Positions 103-21,851 are shown, counted from the first letter of the stretch. The stretch: 39,394 nt of DNA from an uncultured Clostridia bacterium (GCA_946646305.1 CAMPCO010000001.1:1-39394), one strand, 5' to 3'. Program-made: numbers and translations. The notes: a model not told the origin generated them from the letters alone.

Positions 103-795
103 ATGAAAATATACGGCTTTCAGAAAATGACCTTGCTTGATTTCCCCGGTCATGTTGCGGCAACGGTTTTCACCGGCGGATGCAATTTAAGGTGTCCTTT
201 TTGCCACAATGCCGCCCTTGTGACCGAAATCGATCCCGCGGCTATATATAATGAAGATGATATCATCGCCTTTTTGGCAAAGCGAACAAATCTGCTTGAT
301 GGCGTTGCCATAACCGGCGGCGAACCGCTTATGCAGGTTGATATATGCGGGTTTATTAAAAAGGTGAGGGGTTTGGGCTACAAGGTTAAGCTTGATACAA
401 ACGGCAGTTACCCCGATAAGCTGGAAGAGATAGTAAGCGAGCATTTGGTAGATTACATCGCAGTCGATATAAAAAACAGCCGCGAAAAGTATGCGCTTAC
501 CACAGGCGTTAAAGATTATGACCTGGCTTCCCTTGATAGATCGCTTGAAATTCTTAAAAACTGCGATATAGAGCATGAATTCCGCACTACTATTGTTAAA
601 GAACTTCACGAAACCGAGGACATAATAAAGATAGGCGAGTGGATGAAGGGCGAAAAGAACTACTTTTTGCAAAACTTTGTTGATAGCGGAAACCTCATAG
701 GAAGCGGTTTTTCCGCCGTTTCAAGGGAGAAGTTAGAGGAAATGCGCAAGGCAGCCACCCCTTATTTTGAAAATGTTGGGGTCAGAGGGATATAA
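103..795 (+). CDS. nrdG: Anaerobic ribonucleoside-triphosphate reductase activating protein (radical SAM)
   Basis: N-terminal GGCNLRCPFCHN radical-SAM CxxxCxxC cluster motif. GGGTG RBS 6-11 nt upstream. Lies beside nrdD and has NrdR boxes upstream. Confidence 0.9.
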   Translation: MKIYGFQKMTLLDFPGHVAATVFTGGCNLRCPFCHNAALVTEIDPAAIYNEDDIIAFLAKRTNLLDGVAITGGEPLMQVDICGFIKKVRGLGYKVKLDTNGSYPDKLEEIVSEHLVDYIAVDIKNSREKYALTTGVKDYDLASLDRSLEILKNCDIEHEFRTTIVKELHETEDIIKIGEWMKGEKNYFLQNFVDSGNLIGSGFSAVSREKLEEMRKAATPYFENVGVRGI

Positions 796-797
796 AA

Positions 798-845
798 ACA
801 CAAGATATTGTGTTTTTTCTCTTGACAAACCACAAATGATATGGT
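798..845. promoter_or_regulatory. Tandem NrdR boxes upstream of nrdD
   Basis: Box 1 is ACACAAGATATTGTGT (798-813), a near-perfect palindrome matching the NrdR consensus. Box 2 is ccacaaatgatatggt (830-845); it is weaker and sits inside the promoter spacer. Centres are 32 bp apart. Confidence 0.7.
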
Positions 846-850
846 ATATT
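822..850 (+). promoter_or_regulatory. Putative sigma-A-type promoter of nrdD
   Basis: -35 TTGACA (822-827), 17-bp spacer, -10 TATATT (845-850), 35 nt upstream of the ATG at 885. Confidence 0.55.
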
Positions 851-884: not shown

Positions 885-3260
885 ATGTATTCAGTAACCA
901 AACGAGACGGTCAGATAGTTGGCTTTGAACTGGGAAAAATAAAGGATGCTATTATTAAAGCATTTGAAGCATGCCAAAGGGAATATAACCCCGAGGTTAT
1001 AGATTTTCTTTGTTTAAAAGTTACAGCTGATTTTGAGCCGAAGATTGAAAACGGAACTATCACCGTTGAAAAAATTCAGGATAGTGTTGAATCGGTTTTA
1101 AGCAAAGCCGGTTATGATGATGTTTCTAAGGCTTATATCCTTTATCGCCGTCAGCACGAAAAAATTCGTAACATTTCAAATACAATGGTTGACTATAAGT
1201 CGATTGTTGATAACTATCTTAATGTTGCAGACTGGCGCGTTAAGGAAAACTCCACCGTTACCTATTCGGTAGGCGGTCTTATCCTTTCAAACTCGGGCGC
1301 TATCACTGCTAACTATTGGCTTTCCGAAATATATGATGATGAAATCGGCAATGCTCACCGCAATGCGGATATTCATATTCATGACCTTTCCATGCTTACA
1401 GGTTACTGCGCAGGTTGGTCACTCAAGCAGCTCATTCAGGAAGGTCTCGGCGGTGTTCCCGGCAAGATTACTTCTTCTCCCGCTTCCCACCTTTCAACCC
1501 TCTGCAACCAGATGGTTAACTTCCTCGGTATTATGCAGAACGAATGGGCGGGCGCGCAGGCGTTTTCATCCTTTGATACTTATCTTGCTCCCTTTGTTAA
1601 GGCGGACAACCTTACCTATAAGGAAGTTAAACAGTGCATTCAATCCTTCATTTACGGTGTAAATACTCCTTCTCGTTGGGGTACTCAATCACCCTTTACC
1701 AATGTAACACTTGACTGGACAGTTCCTAACGACCTTGCAGAACTCAACTGCATCGTAGGCGGCAAGGAAATGGACTTTAAGTATAAAGATTGTAAGAAAG
1801 AAATGGATATGGTAAACAAGGCGTTTATCGAAATCATGATCGAAGGCGATGCCAACGGTCGCGGCTTCCAGTATCCTATTCCGACCTATTCAATCACCCG
1901 TGATTTTGACTGGTCTGACACAGAAAACAACCGTTTGCTCTTTGAAATGACCGCAAAATACGGCACACCTTATTTCTCTAACTATATCAACAGCGATATG
2001 GAACCCAGCGATGTTCGCTCTATGTGCTGCAGACTTCGTCTTGACCTTCGTGAGCTTCGCAAAAAGTCGGGCGGTTTCTTCGGAAGCGGTGAGTCAACAG
2101 GTTCTGTCGGCGTTGTTACCATCAATATGCCGCGTATAGCCTATCTTTCCGAAACACCGGAAGAATTCTATAAGCGCCTTGACCATATGATGGATATTTC
2201 CGCCCGTTCACTTAAAGTTAAGAGAACAGTTATCACAAAGCTTCTTGAAAACGGTCTTTATCCTTATACCAAGCGCTATCTCGGCACATTTAACAACCAC
2301 TTCTCAACCATCGGTCTTGTTGGTATGAACGAAGCAGGTCTTAACGCCAAGTGGCTCAGGAAAGATATGACCCATAAGGAAACCCAGCAGTTTACCATTG
2401 ATGTATTAAATCATATGCGTGAGCGCCTTTCCGATTATCAGGAGCTTTACGGCGACCTTTACAACTTAGAGGCAACACCTGCCGAGTCAACCTCTTACCG
2501 TCTTGCTAAGCACGATAAGAAGCATTATCCCGATATCATCACCGCCAACGAAAACGGCACACCTTACTACACCAACTCTTCTCATCTGCCGGTTGGCTTT
2601 ACCGAGGATGTATTCACGGCTCTTGATATTCAGGATGAATTGCAGACCCTTTATACCTCAGGTACCGTTTTCCACGCATTCCTCGGTGAAAAACTTCCCG
2701 ATTGGTCTGCGGCGGCAAATCTTGTAAGAAAGATTGCCGAAAACTACAAACTGCCTTACTACACCATGTCTCCGACATATTCTGTATGTAAGAACCACGG
2801 CTATCTCACCGGCGAGCAGTTCTCCTGCCCGATATGCGGCGAAAAGACCGAGGTTTACAGCCGTATCACCGGTTACTATCGCCCGGTACAAAACTGGAAC
2901 GATGGTAAGGCTCAGGAATATCAAGACAGAAAGACCTATGATATTGCTCATTCTCATCTCACCCACGATGGCGTTATAGGTGCCGATGCCAAACCGCAAA
3001 CCGAAGCGACAGCCACCGTTAGTGCGGATAGCGAAAACGCAACCTATCTCTTTGCAACACCCACTTGCCCCAACTGCAAAATAGCGGCAAGCCTGCTTGA
3101 TAAACAGGGTGTGGCTTATGAAAAGGTTTTTGCAAACGAGCATGTCGATATGGTTGAAAAATTCGGTATTAAGCAAGCTCCCACCCTTGTAGAGGTTAGA
3201 AACGGCGAGTTTGAGAAATTTACCGGTGTATCTGATATAAAGAAACATCTTAACATTTGA
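885..3260 (+). CDS. nrdD: Anaerobic (class III) ribonucleoside-triphosphate reductase with a C-terminal thioredoxin/glutaredoxin-fold extension
   Basis: N-terminal ATP-cone-like region (VTKRDGQIVGFELGKI). Finger-loop RSMCCRLRLD. Zn-ribbon CKNH...CPIC. Glycyl-radical motif SRITGYYRPV (G663). About 125 additional in-frame codons end in a CPNC redoxin-like module. GGAGGA RBS. Confidence 0.95.
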   Translation: MYSVTKRDGQIVGFELGKIKDAIIKAFEACQREYNPEVIDFLCLKVTADFEPKIENGTITVEKIQDSVESVLSKAGYDDVSKAYILYRRQHEKIRNISNTMVDYKSIVDNYLNVADWRVKENSTVTYSVGGLILSNSGAITANYWLSEIYDDEIGNAHRNADIHIHDLSMLTGYCAGWSLKQLIQEGLGGVPGKITSSPASHLSTLCNQMVNFLGIMQNEWAGAQAFSSFDTYLAPFVKADNLTYKEVKQCIQSFIYGVNTPSRWGTQSPFTNVTLDWTVPNDLAELNCIVGGKEMDFKYKDCKKEMDMVNKAFIEIMIEGDANGRGFQYPIPTYSITRDFDWSDTENNRLLFEMTAKYGTPYFSNYINSDMEPSDVRSMCCRLRLDLRELRKKSGGFFGSGESTGSVGVVTINMPRIAYLSETPEEFYKRLDHMMDISARSLKVKRTVITKLLENGLYPYTKRYLGTFNNHFSTIGLVGMNEAGLNAKWLRKDMTHKETQQFTIDVLNHMRERLSDYQELYGDLYNLEATPAESTSYRLAKHDKKHYPDIITANENGTPYYTNSSHLPVGFTEDVFTALDIQDELQTLYTSGTVFHAFLGEKLPDWSAAANLVRKIAENYKLPYYTMSPTYSVCKNHGYLTGEQFSCPICGEKTEVYSRITGYYRPVQNWNDGKAQEYQDRKTYDIAHSHLTHDGVIGADAKPQTEATATVSADSENATYLFATPTCPNCKIAASLLDKQGVAYEKVFANEHVDMVEKFGIKQAPTLVEVRNGEFEKFTGVSDIKKHLNI

Positions 3261-3270
3261 GTTGATTTTT

Positions 3271-4179
3271 ATGTATGATATTATAATTATCGGCGGCGGC
3301 CCTGCGGGGCTCGTCGCCGCAGTATATGCGCGCCGCGCGCAAAAAAGCGTTCTCGTAATTGAAAAAGAGGTCTTCGGCGGACAGATAACCTTTTCGCCTA
3401 AGGTTGAAAACATACCCGGCTTTAAAGAACTTTCGGGCAATGAGTTTGCCGAAAATCTGGTTGACCAGGCAATAAACCTCGGCGCGGATTTTGAAATGTG
3501 CGAAGCGGTATCGGTAAAACAGGGGGATATAAAAACCGTTGTGACCGATTCGGGCGAGTATGAGGGCAAGGCCGTTATAATCGCAACCGGCGCCAAGCAC
3601 CGCAGATTAGGTCTTCCAAACGAGGATAAATTCATCGGCGAGGGAATATCCTTTTGCGCCGTTTGTGACGGTGCTTTTTATAAGGATAAAACCGTTGCCG
3701 TTATCGGCGGCGGCAATTCCGCTTTGCAGGAAGCCATTTTATTGTCCGAGCAGGCAAAAAAAGTTTATGTTATTCAAAACCTTGATTTTTTAACCGGCGA
3801 AGCCGCTTTGCAGGAGCAATTAAAGGCAAAGCCCAATGTTGAAATAATCTTGGGCTCCGTGCTTGATGCATATCTTGGCGAAGATGAAATCAAAGGCGTT
3901 CGCATAAAACGCGAAAAGGATGGGGAACTTTCCGAAATCGCGCTTGACGGCGTTTTCCTTGCGATTGGTCTTATCCCGCAGAACGAGGCTTTTGCCGATA
4001 TTATTCCTCTTGATGAAAGGGGATATGCAATAGCCGATGAAAACTGCCTTTTAGATGGCGGAATATTTGTTGCGGGCGATTGCAGAACCAAGAAAATCAG
4101 GCAGGTTACAACCGCCGCCGCGGATGGTGCGGTTGCCGCGCTTGCCGCCTGCGATTATATTGAAACCTTGACAAAATAA
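3271..4179 (+). CDS. trxB: Thioredoxin-disulfide reductase homologue (low-Mr TrxR family) with a non-canonical pyridine-nucleotide site
   Basis: GGGPAG FAD motif, redox-active CAVC, second GGGNSA dinucleotide motif and C-terminal GDC motif. ATG 3271 was chosen as the start because it gives MYDIIIIGGGPAG. The ORF track's TTG at 3262 is an alternative. No strong SD, so translation may be coupled to nrdD. Confidence 0.85.
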   Translation: MYDIIIIGGGPAGLVAAVYARRAQKSVLVIEKEVFGGQITFSPKVENIPGFKELSGNEFAENLVDQAINLGADFEMCEAVSVKQGDIKTVVTDSGEYEGKAVIIATGAKHRRLGLPNEDKFIGEGISFCAVCDGAFYKDKTVAVIGGGNSALQEAILLSEQAKKVYVIQNLDFLTGEAALQEQLKAKPNVEIILGSVLDAYLGEDEIKGVRIKREKDGELSEIALDGVFLAIGLIPQNEAFADIIPLDERGYAIADENCLLDGGIFVAGDCRTKKIRQVTTAAADGAVAALAACDYIETLTK

Positions 4180-4365: not shown

Positions 4366-4370
4366 GTTTA

Positions 4371-4405
4371 ATCCCGTATCGCCTTGGGCGATACGGGATT
4401 TTGTT
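4371..4405. terminator. Rho-independent terminator shared by two convergent small ORFs
   Basis: Perfect 13-bp stem atcccgtatcgcc / ggcgatacgggat (4371-4383 / 4387-4399) followed by TTTGTT on the plus strand. An A/T-rich tract on the other side makes bidirectional use plausible. Confidence 0.7.
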
Positions 4406-7337: not shown

Positions 7338-9851
7338 TCAAGGTTTTTTAATCATAAACGCCGCAAGTGAAACCGCGGTGGCGGCAAGTTCAAATATGAG
7401 AACGGTAAGTCCGCGCTCCGCTATGGTAACATCGCCGAGGAAGGAACCGTAGATAAAGTAGATGGTTCCTATAACCGCCGCGATAACATATAAAACGGTC
7501 AGCAATATGTTTGATTTTTTTATCCTCGCCGCGCTGCACATTATCTGCAAAAGGCTCATAGATGTGCCGCGGAAAGCCGCCGGAGCGGAGGTCTCTTCGC
7601 AGGGCATAGTCGCTTCCTTGTGGGCATTTGCACCGGTTACATTCATAACCAGCACCGAGTCTTCATAAAGATCAAAATAATCGCAGATCATCTCGTTTGT
7701 AACATTAGGATCGGTGTTATCTACAAGAAGAGTGATGCCGAGATCCGCCGCGCTTTTAAGCTGTTTTGTAACCGCGTGATTAACCTTGTATTTTATAACA
7801 AGTAATAGGCAGGCTTTGTTGTCGGTTGCAACATAAACAGGGAAGAAGCCTTTTCTTAAAATCTCGCGATCGTATTCAAGATCGGGAACTTCAATGCCGT
7901 GGGCTTGAAGCAGGGTGCGGTTGCCTATAAACATCAGTTTATCATCAACCCAGCCGGATATACCGAGCCTTTTTTCGTATTTAACCGTATCGGATGGCGG
8001 AACATCATAAGCGGCATTTGTTTTTGCAATTTGCTTAAATATGTTGGAAAGCGGGCTTGATACCGCATCGGTAAGCGAAGCGGCGCGAAGAATAATATCA
8101 TCAACATTGTTGTTTGCAAGAACCTTCATATCTTTTAAAACAACACTTCCGTGCGGGAAGATATCTTCTGTTTTTATAACCACCGCGTTTGCCTGGTTTA
8201 TTTTATCCGCCCCTGCATAGCCGTTTAACATTGCGCCTATTCTGTTAAGCCTTGTTGCGGCACTGCGAAGCGGCAGAACATCAAGCAGGAAAACAACAGG
8301 CATCGCCGCCGCGCACAGGATGGCGGATGAAACATAAAGCGATTCGGTAACACTGTGTTTTATAAGTCCCGCAATTATCGCCGCCACAACAGCCAGCGAA
8401 AGGGAAACAGCAATAAGTATAGATGATTTTTCAAAGGTTTTCGGCTTGTATGAAGAATACTTCATAAAGTCGGCTACGCGGTCGGTTTGCCTTGAAGTGG
8501 CAATCATAACCTTACCCTCTATGGAATTCCTCGCCATAACAATGGTTGTCGGGTCATCATTGATAAGGCTGACCGCTTTTTTTGGCCTTTGAACAGAAAT
8601 GATTTTTAAATTTCCTTGTTTTATTGAAACATCATAAAAACGGGAAATTATGCGGATAAGCAACATAAATGCGCAAACCACTATAACCGTAAAGCAGTTT
8701 TCTCCTTTAATGCAGGAAAAAACGGAAAGCGCCAAAGTGGAAAGGGAGGCCAGAGCGGCGCATAAATCAAAACTCGGCTCGCCCTTTATAACCTTCGCAA
8801 AGCTTGTAAACATTTCGCAGTTTAAAAGCACCATAACCGAAAGAATGGCGGTAGAGGCGATAAGCAATGCCGATGAGCCGCTATAAAATGAGGCATAGAT
8901 AGAAGGCATAAGGAAAATCAGCAAAACAAATAACAGAACGCCGCAAAGAATAGAACTCAAAAACAGGTTGCGCTTTTTGATTGCGAACTTATGTAAAAAC
9001 AGTTTTTCATCCTTGCGATCGTTTATTTCCTCTTTTGGAGCAAAGGTGTCAAAATCATCCTCTTCATAATCGGAGATGGTATCATCATCCGAAACGGGTC
9101 TCTCGGTAAATTCGCCGCTTATATCAAACTGATTTGTAATTGTTTCAACCTTTAAAACAGGCTTATCGCTTCCCGTGTCGGTAACAGGGGTAAACCTGAT
9201 TGTTGCCGTATCGGATGTGGCGGGTTTATCCTGAATGGTATCGGTTTCTTCGGGTTTATCGATATCGGAAATATAACCCTTAATGTTTTCCGCGGGTTCT
9301 TCCATTGTTTTTTCATCAGAATGAATCTCTTCAGGCTCTCGGTCTTCTTCAGGTTGAACCGTGTCCTTAGCATCTTCGGACTTATCCTCTGTATCTATTC
9401 CGAGTATTTCATCCACCGTTTCAAGCTCGTATGCAGGCTTTTCATCCTCTTCTTGAACCTTCTCTTCGGTTTTAAGTATCTCATCAACCGTTTCAAGTTC
9501 ATAAGAAGGCTTTTCCATCTCTTCAAGCGCATCCTCGCCCTTATCATTTGTTGTAAAACGGCGCATTCGCTTTAAAAATGAAAGCTTGCTTTTGTTTGAT
9601 GGGGTATCATCCTCTTCGCCGATAAAATCGGGGGCAGGGGGAAGCGGGTTCGAAAAATCTTTTTCTTCAGCCGCTTCTTCTGTTTTTGCAACATCGGCTT
9701 CCGCCGCTTCTTCATCGGTATCAACAACAAAGCCTACAAAGTCAGTGGGCTTTTTATCTGCGGTCTCACCCGATTGAATGGACTTAATTCTATCTTTTAA
9801 AGCATCCAGGGGGCTTTTTTCGTTTTCTTTATTGTTGCTATATTCGTTCAC
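7338..9851 (-). CDS. Membrane protein: acidic disordered N-terminus (about 285 aa) fused to a degenerate P1B-type (heavy-metal) ATPase-like body
   Basis: GTG start with GGAG RBS 9 nt upstream; the RBS overlaps the rlmB stop. The C-terminal 550 aa are collinear by eye with CopA/ZntA-type ATPases (GEPSFDLCAALASL, ILCAAAMPVV, ANAVVIKTEDIF, ILRAASLTDAVSSPL, FIGNRTLLQAHGI, GITLLVDNTDPN), but the catalytic motifs are mutated. Multiple TM helices. Confidence 0.75.
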   Translation of the reverse strand: MNEYSNNKENEKSPLDALKDRIKSIQSGETADKKPTDFVGFVVDTDEEAAEADVAKTEEAAEEKDFSNPLPPAPDFIGEEDDTPSNKSKLSFLKRMRRFTTNDKGEDALEEMEKPSYELETVDEILKTEEKVQEEDEKPAYELETVDEILGIDTEDKSEDAKDTVQPEEDREPEEIHSDEKTMEEPAENIKGYISDIDKPEETDTIQDKPATSDTATIRFTPVTDTGSDKPVLKVETITNQFDISGEFTERPVSDDDTISDYEEDDFDTFAPKEEINDRKDEKLFLHKFAIKKRNLFLSSILCGVLLFVLLIFLMPSIYASFYSGSSALLIASTAILSVMVLLNCEMFTSFAKVIKGEPSFDLCAALASLSTLALSVFSCIKGENCFTVIVVCAFMLLIRIISRFYDVSIKQGNLKIISVQRPKKAVSLINDDPTTIVMARNSIEGKVMIATSRQTDRVADFMKYSSYKPKTFEKSSILIAVSLSLAVVAAIIAGLIKHSVTESLYVSSAILCAAAMPVVFLLDVLPLRSAATRLNRIGAMLNGYAGADKINQANAVVIKTEDIFPHGSVVLKDMKVLANNNVDDIILRAASLTDAVSSPLSNIFKQIAKTNAAYDVPPSDTVKYEKRLGISGWVDDKLMFIGNRTLLQAHGIEVPDLEYDREILRKGFFPVYVATDNKACLLLVIKYKVNHAVTKQLKSAADLGITLLVDNTDPNVTNEMICDYFDLYEDSVLVMNVTGANAHKEATMPCEETSAPAAFRGTSMSLLQIMCSAARIKKSNILLTVLYVIAAVIGTIYFIYGSFLGDVTIAERGLTVLIFELAATAVSLAAFMIKKP
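9402..9515 (-). repeat. In-frame tandem duplication inside the acidic N-terminus of the 837-aa protein
   Basis: EKPSYELETVDEIL (aa 113-126) and EKPAYELETVDEIL (aa 137-150), period 24 aa. Visible in the DNA as accgtttcaagctcgtatgcaggcttttc and accgtttcaagttcataagaaggcttttc. Confidence 0.85.
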
Positions 9852-12350: not shown

Positions 12351-12371
12351 AAAATCAACAATTAAATTGTT

Positions 12372-12439
12372 TGCCGATATAGTTTCGAGTTTATGGTTCG
12401 AATGTTTCTACCGTGGCGCCTAAGTCACGACTATCGGTG
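12372..12439 (+). promoter_or_regulatory. Purine riboswitch aptamer, guanine/xanthine class (G-box)
   Basis: Collinear with the B. subtilis xpt G-box. P1 is ccgata/tatcgg. L2 is UUAUGG. J2/3 is UGUUUCUACC. P3 is cgtgg...tcacg with L3 CGCCUAA. J3/1 GACUAU carries the specificity C rather than the U of adenine switches. Located upstream of xpt. Confidence 0.85.
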
Positions 12440-12499
12440 AAGTTTTCCATTTTTCACTGCTTTATTTTATATAAAACGGTGTAATATTTGGTTATCGGC

Positions 12500-12557: not shown

Positions 12558-13130
12558 ATGAAATCACTTGAAGAGAAAATACTTCGCGAGGGTATTGTGC
12601 TTGATGGTGATGTTCTTAAAGTCGGCTCTTTTTTAAATCAACAAATTGATATTGATTTTCTTTTTAAAATGGGTGATGAAATCGCTCGCGCTTTTGCGGA
12701 TGAACATATAACAAAGGTTCTAACCGTCGAAGCTTCGGGCATTGCGATTGCCGTTGCGGCGGCACATTATATAAATGTACCGGTTGTGTTTGCAAAAAAG
12801 AGCAAGACAATAAATGTTCACGGTGAGGTTTATTCCGCGCGTGTTCATTCCTATACGCATTGTATTGATAATAATATAATCGTTCCGAAAGACTACCTCA
12901 GCCCAAACGATAAAGTCCTTATTGTTGATGATTTTCTTGCAAACGGAAAGGCGTTTGAAGGCCTTATAGAGATTGCGAAACAGGCGGGAAGTCAGATTGC
13001 GGGTTGTGCCGTTGCGATAGAAAAAGGATACCAGGGCGGCGGCGATAATCTTCGCGCCAAGGGATATAAAGTTCATTCCCTTGCTATTATCGATGAAATG
13101 TCCGCCGGCGGTATAAAATTCCGCAAATAA
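12558..13130 (+). CDS. xpt: Xanthine phosphoribosyltransferase
   Basis: 190 aa. MKSLEEKILREG...VLKVGSFLNQQID N-terminus typical of Xpt, and PRPP-binding loop VLIVDDFLANG. GGGAGG RBS. G-box upstream. Confidence 0.9.
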   Translation: MKSLEEKILREGIVLDGDVLKVGSFLNQQIDIDFLFKMGDEIARAFADEHITKVLTVEASGIAIAVAAAHYINVPVVFAKKSKTINVHGEVYSARVHSYTHCIDNNIIVPKDYLSPNDKVLIVDDFLANGKAFEGLIEIAKQAGSQIAGCAVAIEKGYQGGGDNLRAKGYKVHSLAIIDEMSAGGIKFRK

Positions 13131-13188: not shown

Positions 13189-14388
13189 ATGAAAAAACTT
13201 TTTGCACTCTTGCTTGCAGTAGTAATGCTTATGGGCCTTGCTGCTTGCGGTAGCAAAAACACCGAAGAAAAGAAGACCGAAGAAGGCATCAAGGTTGGCC
13301 TTATCTGTCTCCACGATGAAAACTCAACCTATGATAATAACTTCATCCAGGCTTTAAAAGAAGTTCAGGAAGAACTCGGCCTTAAAGATGATCAGGTTCT
13401 TATCAAAACAAACGTAGATGAAAGCGATGCTTGCTACAATGCAGCTGCTGAACTCGTTGACGCAGGATGCGACATCATCTTTGCTGACTCTTTCGGTCAT
13501 GAATCTTTCATGATTCAGGCTGCTAAGGAATTCCCGGAAGTTCAGTTCTGCCACGCTACCGGCACAAAGTCACAGACCGAAGGTCTTGACAATTTCCACA
13601 ATGCATTTGCCGCTATCTATCAGGGTCGTTACCTTGCAGGTGTTGCTGCAGGCATGAAGCTCAACGAAATGATCGAAAAAGGCACTATCACCGCTGATAA
13701 GGCTGTTATCGGTTATGTTGGCGCATTCGACTATGCAGAAGTTGTTTCAGGTATGACTTCATTCTTCCTCGGCGCTCGTTCTATCTGCCCGACCGCTACT
13801 ATGAAGGTTACATACACCAACTCTTGGTTCGATATAGCAAAAGAAAAAGAATCTGCTCTTAACCTCATCAACTCCGGTTGTGTTCTTATCAGCCAGCATG
13901 CTGATAGCGAAGGCGCACCGAAGGCTTGCGAAGAAAAAGGCGTTCCGAATGTTGCTTACAACATCAGCACCATCTCCATGGGCCCGAACACCGCTCTTAT
14001 TTCTTCCAAGATTGATTGGAGCGTATACTTCAAGCTCGCTATCGAAGCTGTTATGAACGGCAAAGAAATCCCCACTGATTACTGTGGCACTATGGCAGAA
14101 GGCGCTGTTAAGCTCACCGAGCTCAACGAAAAAGCAGCTGCTGCCGGCACTCAGGAAAAACTTGACGAAGTTCAGGCTAAGCTTGAAAGCGGCGAACTCA
14201 AAGTATTCGACACCAAGACCTTTACCGTTGGTGGTAAAGAACTCACCACCTATACCGCCGATGTTGTAGACGAAGGCGACTTCGTTCCGGAAACAGAGGC
14301 TATTGAAAACGGTGAATTCGCTGAATCAGTAAAGAGATCTGCTCCTTACTTCGATATTAAATATATTGACGGTATCAGCGCTCTTTAA
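13189..14388 (+). CDS. BMP-family (Med/PnrA-like) ABC transporter substrate-binding lipoprotein, probable nucleoside binding
   Basis: Lipoprotein signal peptide with LAAC lipobox (MKKLFALLLAVVMLMGLAACGS). BMP-family length and composition. Followed by a two-domain ATPase and two permeases, as in nucleoside importers of the nupNOPQ type. Confidence 0.85.
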   Translation: MKKLFALLLAVVMLMGLAACGSKNTEEKKTEEGIKVGLICLHDENSTYDNNFIQALKEVQEELGLKDDQVLIKTNVDESDACYNAAAELVDAGCDIIFADSFGHESFMIQAAKEFPEVQFCHATGTKSQTEGLDNFHNAFAAIYQGRYLAGVAAGMKLNEMIEKGTITADKAVIGYVGAFDYAEVVSGMTSFFLGARSICPTATMKVTYTNSWFDIAKEKESALNLINSGCVLISQHADSEGAPKACEEKGVPNVAYNISTISMGPNTALISSKIDWSVYFKLAIEAVMNGKEIPTDYCGTMAEGAVKLTELNEKAAAAGTQEKLDEVQAKLESGELKVFDTKTFTVGGKELTTYTADVVDEGDFVPETEAIENGEFAESVKRSAPYFDIKYIDGISAL

Positions 14389-14407
14389 TTTTTAAACTAA
14401 CAGAAAA

Positions 14408-14431
14408 AGGCGGAGTTTTTATACTCCGCCT
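14408..14431 (+). terminator. Intra-operon hairpin after the binding-protein gene (possible partial terminator or RNA stabiliser)
   Basis: Perfect 9-bp stem aggcggagt / actccgcct with a 6-nt loop. The T-run begins only about 10 nt downstream, so this is not a canonical terminator. Confidence 0.4.
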
Positions 14432-14534
14432 GTATCTGTTATTTTTTTTAAAAATCTACCTTCGCAAAAGGGTACAAGGCTTTGGTTTATACCTTTTTTC
14501 GAATGCAGTAAAAAAGAAAGGTTGTGTAAGGAAT

Positions 14535-16076
14535 ATGGCTTGTGCCGCAATAGAACTTAAGAATATAACTAAGCGTTTCGGCAGCAAGGTTGTTGCCAAT
14601 CACAATGTTTCACTAAGTGTTTACAAGGGCGAGATATTGTCCTTGCTCGGTGAAAACGGAAGCGGCAAAACAACACTTATGAATATGATTTCGGGTATCT
14701 ATTACCCGGATGAGGGTCAAATCTTTATAGATGGGGAAGAGGTTGTAATTCGTTCCCCTAAAGATGCCTTTAAATATAAAATAGGAATGATACATCAGCA
14801 TTTTAAACTAATCGATGTATTCTCCGCCGCGCAGAATATCGTTTTGGGACTTGAAGAAGAGGGTAAGTTCGATATTAAATCCGTAACGCAACGGGTTAAA
14901 GAGATAAGCAGTATGTACGGCTTTGATATTGACCCGAATAAAAAGATTTATGAGATGTCCGTTTCGGAAAAGCAGACCGTTGAGATAATCAAGGTGCTTT
15001 ACCGCGGCGCGGATATTCTTATTCTCGATGAACCCACCGCGGTTCTCACCCCGCAGGAAACTCAAAAGCTTTTTGCAGTTCTTCGCAAAATGCGTGACAG
15101 CGGCAAGGCGATTATCATAATCACCCATAAGCTTCATGAGGTTTTATCCCTTTCCGATAAGGTTGCGGTACTGAGAAAAGGTGAATATATCGGCACGGTA
15201 AACACCGCCGAAACCAGCGAATCGGAACTGACCGAGATGATGGTCGGCAAGAAGATTAGTCTTAATATCAACAGAACAGAGCCAAAAGACCCCGAAGACC
15301 GACTTGAGGTTAAAAATCTTAACTGCGTAAGCGCTGATGGTGTAAAGCTTCTTGATAATGTTTCTTTCACAGCCCGTTCGGGAGAGATACTCGGCATTGC
15401 CGGTATCGCCGGAAGCGGACAGAGGGAACTGCTTGAATCAATCGCGGGACTTCAGGTGATTGAAAGCGGCAGTATCATTTACCACAACCCCAAAACAGGA
15501 ACAGAAGATGAGCTTCGCGGCAGAAGTCCCATTCAGATAAGAGAACTCGGCGTTCGCCTCTCATTCGTTCCGGAAGACCGACTCGGTATGGGACTTGTCG
15601 GCAATATGGATATCATTGACAATATGATGCTCAGAAGTTACAGAAAGGGTCATTCAATGTTCCTTGAAAAGAAGGGACCGAAAGACCTTGCCGAGCGCAT
15701 TATAAAGGACTTGGAGGTTGTAACCCCATCTGCCCAAACCCCCGTTCGTAAACTCTCGGGCGGTAATGTTCAAAAGGTGCTTGTGGGTCGTGAGATTGCG
15801 GCTTCGCCGACTGTTCTTATGGCGGCTTATCCCGTAAGAGGGCTTGATATCAACTCTTCTTATGCTATTTATAATCTTTTAAATCAGCAGAAAGAACGCG
15901 GTGTAGCGGTTATTTTTGTCGGTGAAGATTTGGATGTTTTAATAGAACTCTGTGATAGAATTCTTGTTATCAGTTCAGGTAAAGTCAGCGGTATAGTTGA
16001 AGGCCGCGGCGCAGATAAAGGTGAAATCGGTCTTATGATGACCGGCGCAAATGGAGGTGCAAACGGTAATGACTAA
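14535..16076 (+). CDS. ABC transporter ATP-binding protein with duplicated ATPase domains (nucleoside/sugar CUT2 type)
   Basis: Walker A GENGSGKTT, signature MSVSEKQ, Walker B ILILDEPT. The second half has GIAGSGQRE and LSGGNVQK. Confidence 0.9.
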   Translation: MACAAIELKNITKRFGSKVVANHNVSLSVYKGEILSLLGENGSGKTTLMNMISGIYYPDEGQIFIDGEEVVIRSPKDAFKYKIGMIHQHFKLIDVFSAAQNIVLGLEEEGKFDIKSVTQRVKEISSMYGFDIDPNKKIYEMSVSEKQTVEIIKVLYRGADILILDEPTAVLTPQETQKLFAVLRKMRDSGKAIIIITHKLHEVLSLSDKVAVLRKGEYIGTVNTAETSESELTEMMVGKKISLNINRTEPKDPEDRLEVKNLNCVSADGVKLLDNVSFTARSGEILGIAGIAGSGQRELLESIAGLQVIESGSIIYHNPKTGTEDELRGRSPIQIRELGVRLSFVPEDRLGMGLVGNMDIIDNMMLRSYRKGHSMFLEKKGPKDLAERIIKDLEVVTPSAQTPVRKLSGGNVQKVLVGREIAASPTVLMAAYPVRGLDINSSYAIYNLLNQQKERGVAVIFVGEDLDVLIELCDRILVISSGKVSGIVEGRGADKGEIGLMMTGANGGANGND

Positions 16077-17172
16077 TGAAAAACATGTAAAAGAACCTCT
16101 GTTTCATATAACCCGCCGCACCGATATTAAACCGCTTGCGGCTTGGGGAATAAGACTCATAGCCGTTGTTGCGGCGCTTATAGTCAGCGCTTTGGTTATT
16201 GTAACCATAACAAATTACAACCCGATTGAAGTTTATGCAAAGATGATTGAGGGCAGCTTCGGTTCCGAGCGTAAATTCTTTATTCTGCTTCAAAACACCG
16301 CAATGCTTCTCTGTGTTTCCCTTGCGGTAACGCCGGCATTTAAGATGAAGTTCTGGAACCTCGGTGCCGAGGGTCAGGTGCTTGTCGGCGGTCTTGCAAG
16401 CGCGGCTTGTATGTTTTATGCAAAAGACAGCCTGCCTTCCTGGTTGCTTATAATCATAATGCTTGTAACAAGTATTTTAAGCGGTATTATCTGGGGCGTA
16501 TTGCCCGCCGTTTTCAAGGCGATTTGGCGGACCAATGAAAGCCTTTTCACCCTTATGATGAACTATGTTGCAATGCAGCTTGTTTCATTCTTTATAATGG
16601 TTTGGGTTCCAAACGGTTCAAGCGTTATGGGCGTTTTAAACCAAAAGAGTGAAAGCGGCTGGTTGCCGGTTGTTTTCGGTCAAAAATACGGGCTTAATAT
16701 TATAATAGTTGCACTGCTCACAGTTGTGATGTTTATCTACCTGCATTTCAGCAAGCAGGGCTATGAAATCTCCGTTGTGGGTGAGAGCGAAAACACTGCG
16801 AGATATGTCGGCATAAATGTTAAAAAGGTTATAATCAGAACAATGGTTATTTCCGGCGCTATATGCGGTCTTGCGGGCTTCCTGCTTGTGTCGGGTACCA
16901 ACCATACCATTTCAAAAGAACTCGCAGGCGGTATGGGCTTTACGGCTATTATGGTTTCCTGGCTTGCAAAATTTGAGCCTGTTATGATGATTTTCACTTC
17001 TATGTTTATTGTCTTCCTTCAAAAGGGAGCAGGGGAGATTGCAACCGCTTTCAGGCTTAATGAAAGTGTTTCCGATATCCTGACCGGTATCATAATCTTC
17101 TTTATTATAGGCAGTGAATTCTTTATAAACTATAAAATCAATATGCGTTCTAAATCGAAGGGGGCGGAATAA
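16069..17172 (+). CDS. ABC transporter permease (BMP-system permease 1)
   Basis: Polytopic membrane protein. ATG 16069 is preferred (GGAGGTG RBS 9 nt upstream, overlaps the upstream stop) over the ORF-track start at 16051. Confidence 0.85.
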   Translation: MTNEKHVKEPLFHITRRTDIKPLAAWGIRLIAVVAALIVSALVIVTITNYNPIEVYAKMIEGSFGSERKFFILLQNTAMLLCVSLAVTPAFKMKFWNLGAEGQVLVGGLASAACMFYAKDSLPSWLLIIIMLVTSILSGIIWGVLPAVFKAIWRTNESLFTLMMNYVAMQLVSFFIMVWVPNGSSVMGVLNQKSESGWLPVVFGQKYGLNIIIVALLTVVMFIYLHFSKQGYEISVVGESENTARYVGINVKKVIIRTMVISGAICGLAGFLLVSGTNHTISKELAGGMGFTAIMVSWLAKFEPVMMIFTSMFIVFLQKGAGEIATAFRLNESVSDILTGIIIFFIIGSEFFINYKINMRSKSKGAE

Positions 17173-18155
17173 TGATTAAAACAATTTTTGCTTTTATCAA
17201 TGCGGCTATCATTCAGTCAATTCCGTTGCTTTACGGTGCCACGGGCGAGATTATTACCGAAAAAAGCGGCAACCTTAACCTCGGTATTCCGGGTATTATG
17301 TATATGGGCGGCATTTCGGGAATTATCGGCGGTTATCTTTATGAACATTCGGTTGCAAACCCAAGCGCAATTCTCTGTGTTTTAATTCCGCTTTTATCAT
17401 CCCTTATCGGTTCAACCCTTTTGGCGCTTATTTACAGTTTCCTTACCATAAGCCTTCGCGTAAACCAGAATGTTACAGGTCTTGCGCTCACAACCTTTGG
17501 TATAGGCATAGGAAACTTCTTTGGCGGTTCGCTACTGAGTTTCTTTGGCGAAACCGGCTCTATATCATTGATAAGAACAGGTAAAGCTTTTAAAGCAAGC
17601 CTGCCCTTTGCTCATAAACTCGGTATTTTCGGCAAAACCTTTTTATCTTTTGGTTTCCTTGCTTACCTTGCAATAGCCATCGCGCTTGTAACATCCTATT
17701 TCTTCAATCGCACAAGAGCAGGTCTTAACCTTCGCGCGGTTGGTGAAAACCCCGCGACTGCCGATGCGGCGGGCATAAATGTTACCAAGTATAAATATCT
17801 TTCAACCCTTATAGGCGGCGCTATTGCAGGACTCGGCGGCCTGTATTTCGTTATGGACTATACCGGCGGCGCCTGGACAAATAACGGCTTTGGCGATAGA
17901 GGTTGGCTCGCAATCGCGATAGTTATTTTCGCTATCTGGCGACCCACAACCGCCATCCTGAGTTCCTTCCTCTTCGGCGGACTTTATATCCTTTCAATCT
18001 ATATCCCCGGTCTTTCGGGCAGTGCGAAAGAGATTATAAATATGTTGCCTTATGTGGTAACAATTCTTGTTCTTGTAATTATCAGTATGCGCAAGAAGAG
18101 AGAAAACCAACCCCCGGCACATCTCGGACTTTCATATTTCAGAGAAGAAAGATAA
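17172..18155 (+). CDS. ABC transporter permease (BMP-system permease 2)
   Basis: Polytopic membrane protein. TAATG start/stop overlap with the preceding permease. Confidence 0.85.
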   Translation: MIKTIFAFINAAIIQSIPLLYGATGEIITEKSGNLNLGIPGIMYMGGISGIIGGYLYEHSVANPSAILCVLIPLLSSLIGSTLLALIYSFLTISLRVNQNVTGLALTTFGIGIGNFFGGSLLSFFGETGSISLIRTGKAFKASLPFAHKLGIFGKTFLSFGFLAYLAIAIALVTSYFFNRTRAGLNLRAVGENPATADAAGINVTKYKYLSTLIGGAIAGLGGLYFVMDYTGGAWTNNGFGDRGWLAIAIVIFAIWRPTTAILSSFLFGGLYILSIYIPGLSGSAKEIINMLPYVVTILVLVIISMRKKRENQPPAHLGLSYFREER

Positions 18156-18191: not shown

Positions 18192-18308
18192 ATATTGGTA
18201 TTATATAGTAAATATATAGTTATATTAAAATTGCTCTTTACTTTTTCCTTTAAAAGTTATATAATTACTATGAGCGAATTTTTAAGCTTTTATTTAGGAG
18301 GAAAACAA

Positions 18309-21300
18309 ATGTCTAGAAAGTTCAAAACAATGGACGGTAACAACGCGGCTGCTCATGTAGCCTATGCGTTTACAGAGGTTGCGGGTATTTACCCGATTAC
18401 TCCGTCCAGTCCTATGGCTGACTATGTTGATCAGTGGTCTGCTCAGGGACTTAAAAATATTTTCGGCACCACGGTAAAAGTGGTTGAAATGCAGTCCGAA
18501 GCCGGTGCGGCCGGTACAGTTCACGGCTCTTTGGCGGCCGGTGCTCTTACCACCACCTTCACGGCATCTCAGGGTCTTCTTCTTATGATCCCGAATATGT
18601 ATAAGATTGCCGGTGAACTTTTGCCTGCGGTATTCCATGTTTCAGCTCGTTGCGTAGCAAGCCATGCGCTTAACATTTTCGGCGATCATTCCGATGTTTA
18701 TGCTTGCCGTCAAACCGGTTTTGCAATGCTTGCCGAAACCAACACTCAGGAAGTTATGGACCTCGGCGCAGTTGCTCACCTTTCTGCAATTAAAGGCCGT
18801 GTTCCTTTCATCAATTTCTTTGATGGTTTCCGTACCTCTCATGAAATTCAGAAAATCCGCGTTTGGGATTATGAAGATCTTAAAGAGATGTGCGATATGG
18901 ATGCCGTTGCCGCATTCCGCAAGCGCGCGCTTAATCCTGAGCGCCCCGTAATGCGCGGCAGCCATGAAAATGACGATATCTTCTTCCAGCACAGAGAAGC
19001 CTGCAACAAATACTATACCGCTTTGCCGGCTATCGTTGAAGAATATATGGACAAAGTTAACAAGAAACTCGGCACTGACTATAAACTCTTCAACTACTAT
19101 GGCGCTCCCGATGCTGAAAAGGTTATTATCGCTATGGGCTCTATCTGCGATGTTGCAGAAGAGGTTATCGATTACCTTACCGCTCAGGGTGAAAAGGTTG
19201 GTCTTGTAAAGGTTCGCCTTTATCGTCCGTTCAGCGCAGAAAAGCTGGTTGAAGCAATTCCTGCAACCACCAAGAAGATTGCCGTTCTTGACCGCACCAA
19301 GGAACCCGGTGCTCTCGGCGAACCGCTTTATATGGATGTTATCAGCGCCCTGGCTCAAAAAGGCAGACATATTGATACCGTTATCGGCGGTAGATATGGT
19401 CTTGGTTCTAAGGATACTCCTCCTTCAAGTATATTTGCTGTATATAAAGAACTTGGCAAAGATGAGCCCAAGGCTCAGTTCACTCTCGGTATCAACGATG
19501 ATGTTACTCATCTTTCACTTCCCGAAGAGCATGCGCCCAACACCGCGGCAGAAGGCACTATCGAATGCAAATTCTGGGGTCTCGGCGGCGATGGTACCGT
19601 TGGTGCAAACAAAAACTCCATCAAAATCATCGGTGATCATACCGATAAATATGTTCAGGCTTACTTCCAGTATGACTCTAAGAAGACCGGCGGTATAACA
19701 ATTTCTCACCTTCGTTTTGGTGATAAGCCGATCAAGAGTCCTTACTACATAAACAAAGCCGACTTCGTTGCCTGCCATAACCCCTCTTATGTAATCAAGG
19801 GTTATAAGATGGTTAACGATGTTAAGCCGGGCGGCGTGTTCCTTATCAACTGCCAGTGGGATAAGGATGAACTCAGCGCTCATATGCCTGCCGAGGCAAA
19901 ACGCTATATCGCTAAGAATAACATTCAGCTTTATACCGTTAATGCTATCGACCTTGCGGCTCAAATCGGTATGGGTAAGCGCACCAACACCATTTTGCAG
20001 TCTGCTTTCTTTGCTCTTTCTAAGGTATTGCCGGTTGACGATGCTATTAAATATATGAAAGAAAAAGCAGAAATCTCTTACTCCAAGAAGGGTGCCGATG
20101 TTGTTCAGATGAACTTCAAGGCTATCGATATAGGCGCTACCGCTTTTGTTAAGGTTGATGTTCCCGCCGATTGGGCAGATGCAGCCGATGAAAAGAAGAC
20201 AGGCGCTTTGGAAGACAGCACCAAGCTTGAAGTTATGGTTGATAACATCATGAAGCCGGTTGGCCTTATGAATGGTTACGAAGTTCCGGTTTCCGCTTTC
20301 GTTCCCCATGCAGACGGTACCTTTGAACAGGGCGCTTCCGCATTTGAAAAACGCGGTGTTGCCGTTATGGTTCCCGCTTGGAACAACGAAACCTGCGTTG
20401 CTTGTAACAAGTGCGCATTCGTTTGCCCGCATGCTACAATTCGCCCCTTTGCTTTAAGCGAAGAAGAAGCAAAGAATGCTCCCGAAAACATCCGCTATGC
20501 CGACAAGGCAAAGGCTGTTCAGAACGCGGGCTACAAATTTGCTCTTACCGTTTCTCCGCTTGATTGTATGGGATGCGGCGTTTGCGTTGGCGTTTGCCCG
20601 ACCAAGTCGCTCGAAATGGTAGCACAGAGCAGCCAGCTTGATGAGCAGAAGGTATTTGACTACTGCGTAGCAAATGTTACCGAAAAAGCAGGCGTGGCTT
20701 CTGATGCAAATGTTATTTCCTCTCAATATAAAAAGCCGTTGCTTGAATTCTCAGGCTCTTGCGCAGGATGTGCTGAAACATCCTATGCTCGCCTTATAAC
20801 TCAGCTCTTCGGCGACAGAATGTATATTTCCAATGCAACAGGTTGCTCATCCATTTGGGGTGGCCCTGCCGCAACTTCACCTTACACTACCGACTTTAAC
20901 GGTCACGGTCCTGCCTGGGCAAACTCTTTGTTTGAAGATAACGCAGAACACGGCTACGGTATGTATTTAGGTCAGCAGGCTATTCGCCGCCGCCTTATTG
21001 ATGAGGTTAAGGAAATAGCTGAAAACAGCAAAAACGATGCAGTTAAATCTGCCGCAGGCGAGTATCTTGATACTGTTAATGACGGCGCTAAGAACTCCGC
21101 TGCTGCAAAGGCTTTGGTAGAAGCAATCAAGGCCGCAGGTGCTGACTGCGATAACTGCCGCGATGTTGTTGCCAATGCTGAATATCTTTCCAAGAAATCT
21201 GTATGGATCTTCGGCGGTGACGGTTGGGCTTATGATATAGGCTTCGGCGGTGTTGACCATGTTCTTGCTTCCGGCGACAATGTAAACATTATGGTATTCG

Positions 21301-21851
21301 ATACCGAGGTTTACTCAAATACCGGCGGTCAGGCTTCCAAGGCTTCCAATATCGGTCAGGTTGCTCAGTTCGCAGCTGCCGGTAAAGCGATTGCCAAGAA
21401 GAGCCTTGCAGAAATCGCTATGAGCTATGGTTATATCTATGTTGCTCAGATAGCTATGGGCGCTGATCAGAACCAGACCCTTAAAGCAATCAAAGAAGCA
21501 GAAGCTTATGATGGTCCTTCGCTTATCATCGGTTATGCTCCTTGCGAAATGCATTCAATCAAGGGCGGTATGGTTAACTGCCAGGCAGAAATGAAGAAGG
21601 CTGTTGACAGTGGATATTGGGATCTCTTCCGTTACAACCCTGCACTTAAAGCAGAAGGCAAGAACCCGTTCTCCCTCGATAGCAAGCCCGCAACTGCTGA
21701 TTATAAGGAATTCATAATGAATGAAGCCCGTTATAACAGACTTACTCGTGAATTCCCCGAAAGGGCAGAGGTTCTCTTTGACAAGGCGGCAGAAACCGCT
21801 AAGGCAAGACGCGCTCACCTTGAAAAACTTGTTGAGCTTTACGGCAAGTAA
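18309..21851 (+). CDS. nifJ: Pyruvate:ferredoxin (flavodoxin) oxidoreductase, single-polypeptide PFOR
   Basis: About 1180 aa. MSRKFKTMDGNNAAAHVAYAF N-terminus. Two ferredoxin-type clusters CVACNKCAFVCP and CMGCGVCVGVCP. TPP motif GGDGWAYDIGFGG. Start set at ATG 18309 (AGGAGG RBS), not the in-frame upstream start at 18195. Confidence 0.95.
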   Translation: MSRKFKTMDGNNAAAHVAYAFTEVAGIYPITPSSPMADYVDQWSAQGLKNIFGTTVKVVEMQSEAGAAGTVHGSLAAGALTTTFTASQGLLLMIPNMYKIAGELLPAVFHVSARCVASHALNIFGDHSDVYACRQTGFAMLAETNTQEVMDLGAVAHLSAIKGRVPFINFFDGFRTSHEIQKIRVWDYEDLKEMCDMDAVAAFRKRALNPERPVMRGSHENDDIFFQHREACNKYYTALPAIVEEYMDKVNKKLGTDYKLFNYYGAPDAEKVIIAMGSICDVAEEVIDYLTAQGEKVGLVKVRLYRPFSAEKLVEAIPATTKKIAVLDRTKEPGALGEPLYMDVISALAQKGRHIDTVIGGRYGLGSKDTPPSSIFAVYKELGKDEPKAQFTLGINDDVTHLSLPEEHAPNTAAEGTIECKFWGLGGDGTVGANKNSIKIIGDHTDKYVQAYFQYDSKKTGGITISHLRFGDKPIKSPYYINKADFVACHNPSYVIKGYKMVNDVKPGGVFLINCQWDKDELSAHMPAEAKRYIAKNNIQLYTVNAIDLAAQIGMGKRTNTILQSAFFALSKVLPVDDAIKYMKEKAEISYSKKGADVVQMNFKAIDIGATAFVKVDVPADWADAADEKKTGALEDSTKLEVMVDNIMKPVGLMNGYEVPVSAFVPHADGTFEQGASAFEKRGVAVMVPAWNNETCVACNKCAFVCPHATIRPFALSEEEAKNAPENIRYADKAKAVQNAGYKFALTVSPLDCMGCGVCVGVCPTKSLEMVAQSSQLDEQKVFDYCVANVTEKAGVASDANVISSQYKKPLLEFSGSCAGCAETSYARLITQLFGDRMYISNATGCSSIWGGPAATSPYTTDFNGHGPAWANSLFEDNAEHGYGMYLGQQAIRRRLIDEVKEIAENSKNDAVKSAAGEYLDTVNDGAKNSAAAKALVEAIKAAGADCDNCRDVVANAEYLSKKSVWIFGGDGWAYDIGFGGVDHVLASGDNVNIMVFDTEVYSNTGGQASKASNIGQVAQFAAAGKAIAKKSLAEIAMSYGYIYVAQIAMGADQNQTLKAIKEAEAYDGPSLIIGYAPCEMHSIKGGMVNCQAEMKKAVDSGYWDLFRYNPALKAEGKNPFSLDSKPATADYKEFIMNEARYNRLTREFPERAEVLFDKAAETAKARRAHLEKLVELYGK

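Follow-up and report, generated by a model that had tools for sequence, protein, structure and literature searches.

How does an anaerobic, class III ribonucleotide reductase (RNR) obtain the electrons that it needs for turnover? This question is raised by an nrdD gene in a stretch of 39,394 nucleotides from an uncultured Clostridia bacterium (GCA_946646305.1, CAMPCO010000001.1:1-39394). This whole stretch is called the window here, and coordinates refer to its plus strand unless stated otherwise. The nrdD gene (885..3260) is one uninterrupted open reading frame (ORF) of 791 codons plus a stop, and its product ends in a thioredoxin-fold domain, called the redoxin module. An earlier note, made from the DNA letters without database searches, had proposed that this domain is a covalently tethered reductant, encoded beside its own reductase. 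The analysis presented here makes it likely that the protein is a thiol-dependent RNR of the NrdD2 type, with its physiological reductant fused to the C-terminus and re-reduced by the product of the neighbouring gene, which resembles thioredoxin reductase (TrxR).

The nrdD frame continues into a redoxin module

The protein starts with an ATP-cone (residues 3-92, 891..1160; PF03477, E = 9e-22). The class III catalytic core and the glycyl-radical domain follow (residues 121-696, 1245..2972), as delimited by PF13597, NF006126, a match in the Protein Data Bank (PDB) and residue conservation. The Pfam family NRDD (PF13597) matches residues 121-685 over its whole 562-position model with 636 bits (gathering threshold 26.2; E = 7e-191), and the NCBIfam model PRK08270, named 'ribonucleoside triphosphate reductase', matches residues 2-687 over all of its 684 positions with 1148 bits. 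For the complete 791-residue protein, NF006126 gives 1148 bits (cutoff 548) and TIGR02487 gives 518 bits (cutoff 326). The protein thus belongs to the NrdD family, with full-length matches that exceed the curated cutoffs. The family models stop at residues 685-687, and therefore about 105 codons remain beyond them before the stop. This extension past NrdD had been claimed by the earlier note and lies outside both the Pfam NRDD and the PRK08270 model. The motif positions given there were all found as described: CKNH at residue 635, CPIC at 648, RITGY at 660 (with Gly663), CPNC at 728-731 and QAPT at 764-767.

To place the fusion among its relatives, two sets of sequences were used. One genome per GTDB species was queried with two peptide patterns taken from the tail, and at least 571 tail-encoding stretches were confirmed among these species-representative genomes. 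Detailed locus counts refer to the best 80 of these at least 571 stretches, which come from gut and rumen metagenome-assembled genomes (MAGs) of Clostridia (Acutalibacteraceae, Candidatus Fimenecus, Oscillospiraceae, Ruminococcus sp. CAG:488, Pumilibacteraceae and one Lachnospiraceae). The second set consists of the 120 closest database proteins, 83-100% identical to the window protein. In all 80 species-level loci the tail stands directly after the NrdD core, with 61-75 residues between the glycyl-radical motif and the CxxC motif and 63-71 residues between the CxxC motif and the stop. The glycyl-radical motif is visible in 77 of the 80 loci, and in all 77 the frame is continuous over the junction. 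The survey of C-terminal lengths gave the same picture, as each of the 120 closest homologues carries CP[NK]C in a protein of 787-950 residues (787-808, save one of 950). A tail that every examined homologue conserves in frame is therefore more than chance. The single protein of 950 residues (P0006) is about 160 residues longer than the other close homologues and has a CCCC cluster in its tether.

The covalent fusion would be spurious if an assembly or sequencing error masked a stop codon that sets nrdD apart from a distinct redoxin gene, and in a few database entries the redoxin is indeed given as a small protein of its own (P0136, P0137, P0146). These entries are explained by a scaffold gap, by an nrdD region of a MAG that was left uncalled and is apparently broken, or by contigs that begin with adapter sequence; together with P0196, they were rejected as free-standing redoxins. 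Furthermore, several independent contigs carry near-identical 791-residue proteins (~100% identity; P0002-P0005), all independent assemblies have the tail in frame with NrdD and without any hidden stop codon, and the base composition does not change abruptly where nrdD passes into the tail. An error of this kind can be considered negligible, and the fusion is genuine, as the earlier note had claimed. The sources of error can be traced in individual loci. An Illumina adapter (GCTCTTCCGATCT) opens two public contigs (L084:1-80 and L085:1-40), where nrdD is truncated and the redoxin mimics a separate small gene. A scaffold gap in L082 likewise makes the redoxin look separate.

The module is a thioredoxin-like redoxin on a variable tether

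An alignment of 119 sequences gives a consensus-residue frequency per column of 0.95 in the core, 0.76 in residues 719-791 and 0.41 in residues 687-718. The earlier note had placed a linker at residues 686-718. A variable tether does exist, but residues 686-696 (D-I-x-H-S-x-L-T-H-x-G) are still conserved; the core thus extends to about residue 696, and the tether is confined to residues 697-718 (VIGADAKPQTEATATVSADSEN; 2973..3038). Its columns reach only ~0.1-0.3, its length varies, and it is rich in E, A and D. These ~22 residues are predicted to be disordered, with a predicted local distance difference test (pLDDT) score below 50 in the AlphaFold2 (AF2) model. The conservation of the module next to such a variable tether suggests that the fusion is under selection.

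The AF2 model of the tail was built with 50 divergent homologues. The 73-residue module (residues 719-791, 3039..3257) reaches a pLDDT of ~90 and shows the order β1-α1-β2-α2-β3-β4-α3. A Foldseek search of the PDB with this model gave 219 matches at E <= 1e-3, headed by thioredoxins with a probability of 1.00. The redox motif Cys728-Pro-Asn-Cys731 (3066..3077) is located at the N-terminus of helix 1, and Ala765-Pro766-Thr767 (3177..3185) lies before strand 3 in the model, where it presumably forms the cis-Pro loop. The β-α-β-α-β-β-α order, the CxxC motif at the start of helix 1 and the Pro before strand 3 are the features of the thioredoxin-fold superfamily. CPNC is found in 119 of the 120 homologues (CPKC in the remaining one), T-C-P-N-C is invariant in 51 divergent tails, and A-P-T, together with Cys728, Cys731 and Pro766, is invariant in the alignments of tails and homologues. 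A full-length AF2 model, calculated from a shallow alignment of sequences that are 83-95% identical, had a mean pLDDT of 51.7 and a predicted template modelling score (pTM) of 0.36; only the ATP-cone and the redoxin module are confident in it. The thioredoxin-fold CxxC domain of the earlier note is therefore supported by Pfam, the AF2 topology, Foldseek and profile matches, which all agree, and its cis-Pro-like PT corresponds to the invariant Pro766.

To which redoxin family does the module belong? A Pfam search with the tail alone (nt 2940-3257), which had been suggested before, places Glutaredoxin above its gathering threshold (26.7 vs 22.9 bits) and Thioredoxin just below (23.2 vs 23.5 bits). 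With the full protein, Glutaredoxin (PF00462) still exceeds its threshold (23.4 vs 22.9 bits), in a match that covers only profile positions 3-37 of 60. The best matches of a tail profile in the PDB are the second, CPYC-containing units of archaeal protein disulfide oxidoreductases (PDO; 1j08 and 1a8l, E = 5e-9 and 2e-8), followed by small thioredoxins (including 1fo5) and NrdH proteins. Sequence matches of the tail in the PDB include the NrdH proteins 4hs1, 4f2i and 1r7h. The closest sequence families are thus PDO or 'glutaredoxin-like protein', NrdH, and the Mj0307-type thioredoxin. PDO, NrdH and the Mj0307-type thioredoxin are reduced by TrxR-type enzymes and not by glutathione.

Two more specific assignments were rejected. 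A glutathione-type glutaredoxin (Grx) would have CPYC, TVP and GGxdD, in place of which the module has the CPNC site, the APT loop and a C-terminal GVSDIK motif; the NCBIfam Grx3 models reach 16-20 bits on the tail, against cutoffs of 90-129. NrdH-redoxins are marked by the motifs C-V/M-Q-C and WSGFRP. Both are absent here, and TIGR02194, the best NCBIfam match, scores 25.1 bits against a cutoff of 85.75. Judged from its motifs and its model, the module is a thioredoxin-like redoxin of Grx size, neither a Grx of the glutathione type nor an NrdH proper.

The tether shows a further peculiarity in many of the homologues. At least two cysteines are present in the tethers of 67 of 138 parsable tails, usually as a CxC, CCC or CxCC cluster flanked by acidic residues (e.g., ECACE, HEGCVCG and KACDCCEN, in homologues P0010-P0120 and others). 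They are absent from the window protein and its closest relatives. By analogy with the C-terminal tail of class I and II RNRs, such a cluster may be an extra relay dithiol, or it may be a metal site.

The catalytic core carries the residues of thiol-dependent enzymes

The closest solved structure of the core is the NrdD of Thermotoga maritima (4coi/4u3e, E = 1.6e-42). Cys175, the active-site cysteine of strand β-A (1407..1409), aligns with Cys125 of that enzyme. The finger loop Met380-Cys381-Cys382-Arg383 (2022..2033) is of the double-cysteine type and aligns with SCCR, and Glu529 (2469..2471) aligns with Glu495 in 'NIEQVP'. These residues are invariant in the 65 homologues over which the conservation of the active site was judged, and all loci in which this region can be seen have MCCR. 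The Zn-ribbon-like C635-K-N-H638 ... C648-P-I-C651 (2787..2837) is aligned with the C...H...CPVC region of T. maritima NrdD, and the glycyl-radical motif RITGY (residues 660-664 with Gly663, 2862..2876) agrees with both the alignment and the sequence. The RxxGY motif preceded by a Cys-rich Zn-ribbon is as expected of an NrdD.

In the account that Aurelius et al. give of the classification by Wei et al. (PMC4493059), the NrdD2 enzymes are defined by a third active-site Cys together with a Glu, to which a Met is added in some members. The window protein has the C381-C382 double-Cys finger loop and Glu529, and its core carries the thiol-type (NrdD2) signature. The T. maritima NrdD was inactive with formate and depended on a protein component of more than 10 kDa that cell extract supplied (PMC4493059). 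MCCR, with its Met, occurs in 83% of the double-Cys class III enzymes, and the reductant of these enzymes is openly left undecided (Burnim et al.). By its residues, the window enzyme is one of this MCCR and Glu majority, and the fusion is therefore informative.

The activase gene nrdG (103..795) encodes a radical-SAM protein of the NrdG2 type (TIGR02495, 211.5 bits, cutoff 131; Pfam Radical_SAM) and lies upstream of nrdD, as a cognate activase should. A full-length nrdD is present in 53 of the best 80 loci, which form the basis of the nrdG and regulatory counts. An nrdG match is found upstream in 52 of these 53 (all except L046), on the opposite strand in one of them (L042).

A TrxR-like gene without the NADPH motif follows the fusion

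The next gene (3262..4179) encodes a TrxR-like disulfide reductase that binds flavin adenine dinucleotide (FAD), as identified by TIGR01292 and PDB matches. Its likely start is the ATG at 3271, 10 nt past the nrdD stop. TIGR01292 matches over the full length with 312.6 bits, below the trusted cutoff of 343.45, so that the protein does not qualify as TrxB by this model. All of its best matches in the PDB bear the name thioredoxin reductase (4zn0, E = 1.7e-72; 7jyp, E = 8.8e-69). The TrxB motifs are present for FAD (GGGPAG, residue 11), for the redox-active disulfide (CAVC, residue 132; 3655..3666) and for the pyrophosphate loop (GGGNSALQE, residue 149), in which the Glu is shifted by one position. 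A relationship with the ferredoxin-dependent flavin thioredoxin reductase (FFTR), which we take to be PDB 6gna/6gnc/6gnd, was rejected. The match to 6gna has E = 7e-34, against 1.7e-72 for 4zn0, and GGGNSA is intact.

The motif VxxxHRRDxxR is missing. In its place the reductase reads VYVIQNLDFLTGE, and the segment IQNLDFLTGE (residues 171-180, 3772..3801) replaces the motif for the 2'-phosphate of NADPH in the alignment with 4zn0, which has HRRD, and 7jyp, which has VQNLPYLT. HRRD confers selectivity for the 2'-phosphate of NADPH, and TrxRs that have lost it are NADH-dependent or independent of NAD(P)H (Valette et al., PMC5627308). The donor of this reductase is therefore probably not NADPH.

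The earlier note had named a TrxR homologue as the next gene, and this neighbourhood recurs across species: 76 of the 80 loci have a TrxR-like match just downstream of the tail. Its motif region can be read in 74 of these. All 74 have CAVC and GGGNSAL[QV]E and lack HRR, with [VIF]QN[LF]xxxTGE at that place or, in four divergent loci, LQDLPxFT[GA]E.

Some loci show other combinations of the two proteins. In L084 (312-905), where nrdD is cut by the contig end, a distant variant of the module is followed by a canonical TrxR of the HRRD type. The association is therefore with TrxR in general, not only with the subtype lacking HRR. In L083 (167-391), from an AT-rich organism, an apparently free-standing 74-residue relative of the module lies directly upstream of a TrxR; among the redoxin matches that seemed free-standing, it alone looks truly separate. 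In three proteins of the representative library (P0174, P0184 and P0281), an N-terminal piece of a TrxR-like enzyme is joined directly to the redoxin module, in P0184 by a linker that contains CVCEE. Such proteins may be genuine rearrangements or may have arisen as chimeras during assembly.

The fusion is also found in viral contigs

Nine viral contigs of IMG/VR (L086-L094) encode the NrdD-tether-redoxin fusion, for example, at L089:2787-5219 and L088:2760-5231. Their cores are 70-85% identical to the window core, and the genes around them encode DNA methylases and proteins of unknown function. The design is conserved in hundreds of uncultured species and in some phages. Two other searches have a different use. 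The representative library, searched with a 76-residue module, gave 629 matches, nearly all of them short fragments or split gene calls, with no full-length NrdD representative; these matches are informative on the diversity of the tail and not on the frequency of the fusion. A word-indexed search with the tail alone returned 52 short proteins and no full-length fused protein, and is unsuited as a domain survey.

Proposed role of the tethered redoxin and its alternatives

If the enzyme is thiol-dependent, nucleotide reduction would leave a disulfide in the active site, between Cys175 of β-A and either Cys381 or Cys382 of the finger loop. The tethered 73-residue CPNC redoxin would reduce it by dithiol exchange, in which Cys728 would attack and Cys731 resolve. 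The oxidised redoxin would then be re-reduced by the co-transcribed TrxR-like flavoprotein, with its FAD and its CAVC site. This reductase, without the 2'-phosphate-binding arginines, would probably draw on NADH or another donor. A gene for pyruvate:ferredoxin oxidoreductase (PFOR; 18195-21851) lies 14 kb from the operon, and reduced ferredoxin would accordingly be a plausible donor in the cell. From sequence we infer each of these links: the catalytic disulfide as the target of the redoxin, the neighbour as its reductase and the nature of the ultimate donor. The fusion would raise the local concentration of the reductant and make the enzyme independent of the general thioredoxin pool of the host. 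NrdG, the NrdR-controlled promoter, the fusion and the reductase would together form a self-contained module for the synthesis of deoxyribonucleoside triphosphates (dNTPs). According to papers that cite Wei et al., the same chemistry applies to the NrdD of Neisseria bacilliformis with free thioredoxin. There is also a precedent for the fusion, as a Grx domain fused to the class I subunit NrdB is a functional RNR reductant (PMC6187632).

Several points weigh against this proposal. A folded domain cannot enter the barrel as the C-terminal tail of class I and II enzymes does, and the MCCR loop retains the Met of the formate-dependent enzymes. In the viral contigs, neither a TrxR-like gene nor a window-like NrdG is found in the flanks (±5 kb for seven contigs, with L086 and L092 lacking an upstream flank), and therefore an adjacent reductase is not obligatory. 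Two viral variants (L092 and L094) have tethers of only ~8-10 residues, which would therefore place the site of action close to the point where the C-terminus leaves the glycyl-radical domain. The redoxin seems to travel with NrdD even without the reductase, and can apparently work near this exit.

In an alternative reading, turnover would be driven by formate through the thiosulfuranyl route of Met380 and Cys175, with the tethered redoxin serving maintenance or activation. The redoxin would keep the cysteines of the Zn-ribbon and the glycyl-radical domain, or an adventitious Cys175-Cys382 disulfide, reduced for NrdG, e.g., for the installation of the glycyl radical after transient exposure to oxygen in the gut. 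The thioredoxin system is said to be needed for the reduction of cysteines at the C-terminus of Escherichia coli NrdD before its activation, a finding reportedly made by Padovani, Mulliez and Fontecave (J Biol Chem 2001). The tether begins right past the Zn-ribbon and the glycyl-radical domain, and the very short viral tethers would hold the redoxin near that domain. The Met that the MCCR loop keeps is important to the E. coli enzyme, which is formate-dependent (Burnim et al.). Against formate stands the invariance of Glu529 and the third Cys, which are the signature of thiol-dependent turnover, and a dedicated reductase gene in the operon exceeds the apparent need of occasional repair. We therefore regard formate-driven turnover as unlikely. 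It is still less probable that the redoxin and the reductase are a general-purpose thioredoxin system that acts in trans on peroxiredoxins, methionine sulfoxide reductase and other targets. Pairs of an NADH-type TrxR and a Grx-like protein do serve peroxide defence in anaerobes, as known for Cp34/Cp9 of Clostridium pasteurianum. The apparently free-standing relative beside a TrxR in L083 would fit such a role, and no other thioredoxin gene was seen among the annotated ORFs of the 39-kb window. A tether to a subunit of ~90 kDa, however, would be a poor design for a diffusible reductant. The fusion is retained in phage genomes that have NrdD but not the reductase, which ties the redoxin to NrdD, and an NrdR box stands for control by dNTPs and not by oxidative stress.

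The dithiol reading, in which the redoxin serves the catalytic disulfide, may be taken one step further, albeit tentatively. The redoxin might be an independently evolved class III counterpart of the shuttle tail of class I and II enzymes, fed by a reductase that uses NADH or ferredoxin. In about half of the homologues, the CxC or CCC motif of the tether would extend the relay, which would run from the reductase to the redoxin, to the tether dithiol and to the active site. We give this version a modest chance at best. If it is true, anaerobic dNTP synthesis would be wired directly to the redox carriers of fermentation, and the reductant of the majority of class III enzymes, those with MCCR and Glu, would be settled in favour of thiols.

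Comparison with known systems

The N. bacilliformis and T. maritima NrdD2 enzymes belong to the same family, share the β-A Cys, the double-Cys loop and the Glu, and use a protein dithiol as reductant. However, their redoxin is a separate protein encoded elsewhere and their loop is SCCR, without Met, whereas the window enzyme has a tethered redoxin, MCCR and a reductase gene in the operon. The system of Methanosarcina barkeri NrdD3 has an Fe-S ferredoxin:disulfide reductase as partner. NrdH and the NrdH-like protein of M. barkeri are also Grx-sized, thioredoxin-like redoxins, each encoded together with the RNR to which it is dedicated. The window protein differs from them by its CPNC site, the lack of WSGFRP, the Glu529 of NrdD2 and a partner that is a flavoprotein homologous to TrxR. 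The PDOs of Pyrococcus horikoshii (1j08) and Pyrococcus furiosus (1a8l), whose units gave the best profile matches, are free two-unit proteins of ~25 kDa, in contrast to the single fused unit found here. The T. maritima TrxR has a Grx-like protein as its partner. This enzyme prefers NADH (PMC5627308), and the window reductase, like PDB 7jyp, likewise lacks HRR.

Redoxins fused to an RNR subunit are already known. Facklamia ignava has a Grx::ATP-cone::NrdB protein, and Francisella and vibriophages have Grx::NrdB (PMC6187632). In these aerobic class I enzymes, the fused domain is a GrxC of the glutathione type, located at the N-terminus of the radical-generating subunit and acting by way of the C-terminal Cys pair of NrdA. 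The redoxin described here is at the C-terminus of the catalytic glycyl-radical subunit and is paired with a TrxR-like gene. The C-terminal Cys-pair tail of class I and II enzymes is also a flexible extension of their catalytic subunit and carries reducing equivalents. It is a short peptide dithiol that itself moves into the active site and takes its electrons from free thioredoxin or Grx, whereas a whole folded redoxin is attached in the window enzyme.

The architecture itself is not unique. It is widespread in MAGs, and one 'Glutaredoxin:NrdD' of subclass NrdDd is listed, without further comment, in Table S1 of Rozman Grinberg et al. 2018 (PMC6187632), from Lachnospiraceae bacterium TWA4 (WP_082039398.1). 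With the characterised Grx::NrdB and the thiol-dependent class III RNRs, both principles were known already. No description of the tethered C-terminal redoxin on NrdD, its prevalence, its pairing with a TrxR that lacks HRR or its occurrence in phages was found in full-text searches of the literature, a scope outside which Wei et al. 2014 falls. The same four features are undescribed in the two papers by Burnim on RNR extensions and in a 2026 review of glycyl-radical enzymes.

The locus thus extends known principles and is not a new kind of system. A conserved natural redoxin fusion, with a reductase in the operon, on an enzyme with MCCR and Glu is a 'Rosetta stone' that speaks strongly for turnover with thiols, at least in this clade. 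It also offers a ready-made three-protein system of NrdG, NrdD-redoxin and reductase, in which the physiological reductant does not have to be guessed; such guessing was the obstacle in the T. maritima work. As a common design in uncultured Clostridia of gut and rumen and in their phages, it is relevant to the synthesis of DNA precursors in dominant gut anaerobes and their viruses.

Operon regulation and genomic context

A palindrome that resembles an NrdR box (ACACAAGATATTGTGT, 798..813) lies 72 nt before the nrdD start, with one mismatch to ACACWATATATWGTGT, reportedly the consensus of Rodionov and Gelfand from 2005. In a search of 725 kb of locus DNA that allowed at most two mismatches, 35 of the 53 loci with a full-length gene have a match in the 400 nt upstream of nrdD, and 38 of all 41 matches fall there. 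Such a conserved box would mark the locus as a working RNR operon. Between the box and the nrdD start, a putative sigma-70-like promoter (TTGACA-17-TATATT with an extended TG, 822..850) is proposed from an 11/12 match to the consensus only. Weaker look-alikes of the NrdR box are found at ~36-51, upstream of nrdG, and at 828-843, overlapping the promoter spacer. After the reductase gene, a predicted bidirectional terminator-like hairpin with a stem of 14 bp (4370..4400) closes the operon.

The remainder of the window is ordinary chromosome, with tatD, metG, nucleoside genes, the PFOR gene and the dcw cell-division cluster. An ORF of 837 residues on the minus strand (7338-9851) is acidic over a long N-terminal region, contains several hydrophobic segments and has no Pfam match at E <= 1e-5. 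A purine riboswitch (12355-12453; RF00167, 57.6 bits) precedes a phosphoribosyltransferase gene (12558..13130), which is followed by an operon for a nucleoside ABC transporter of the PnrA/Bmp type (13189..18155).

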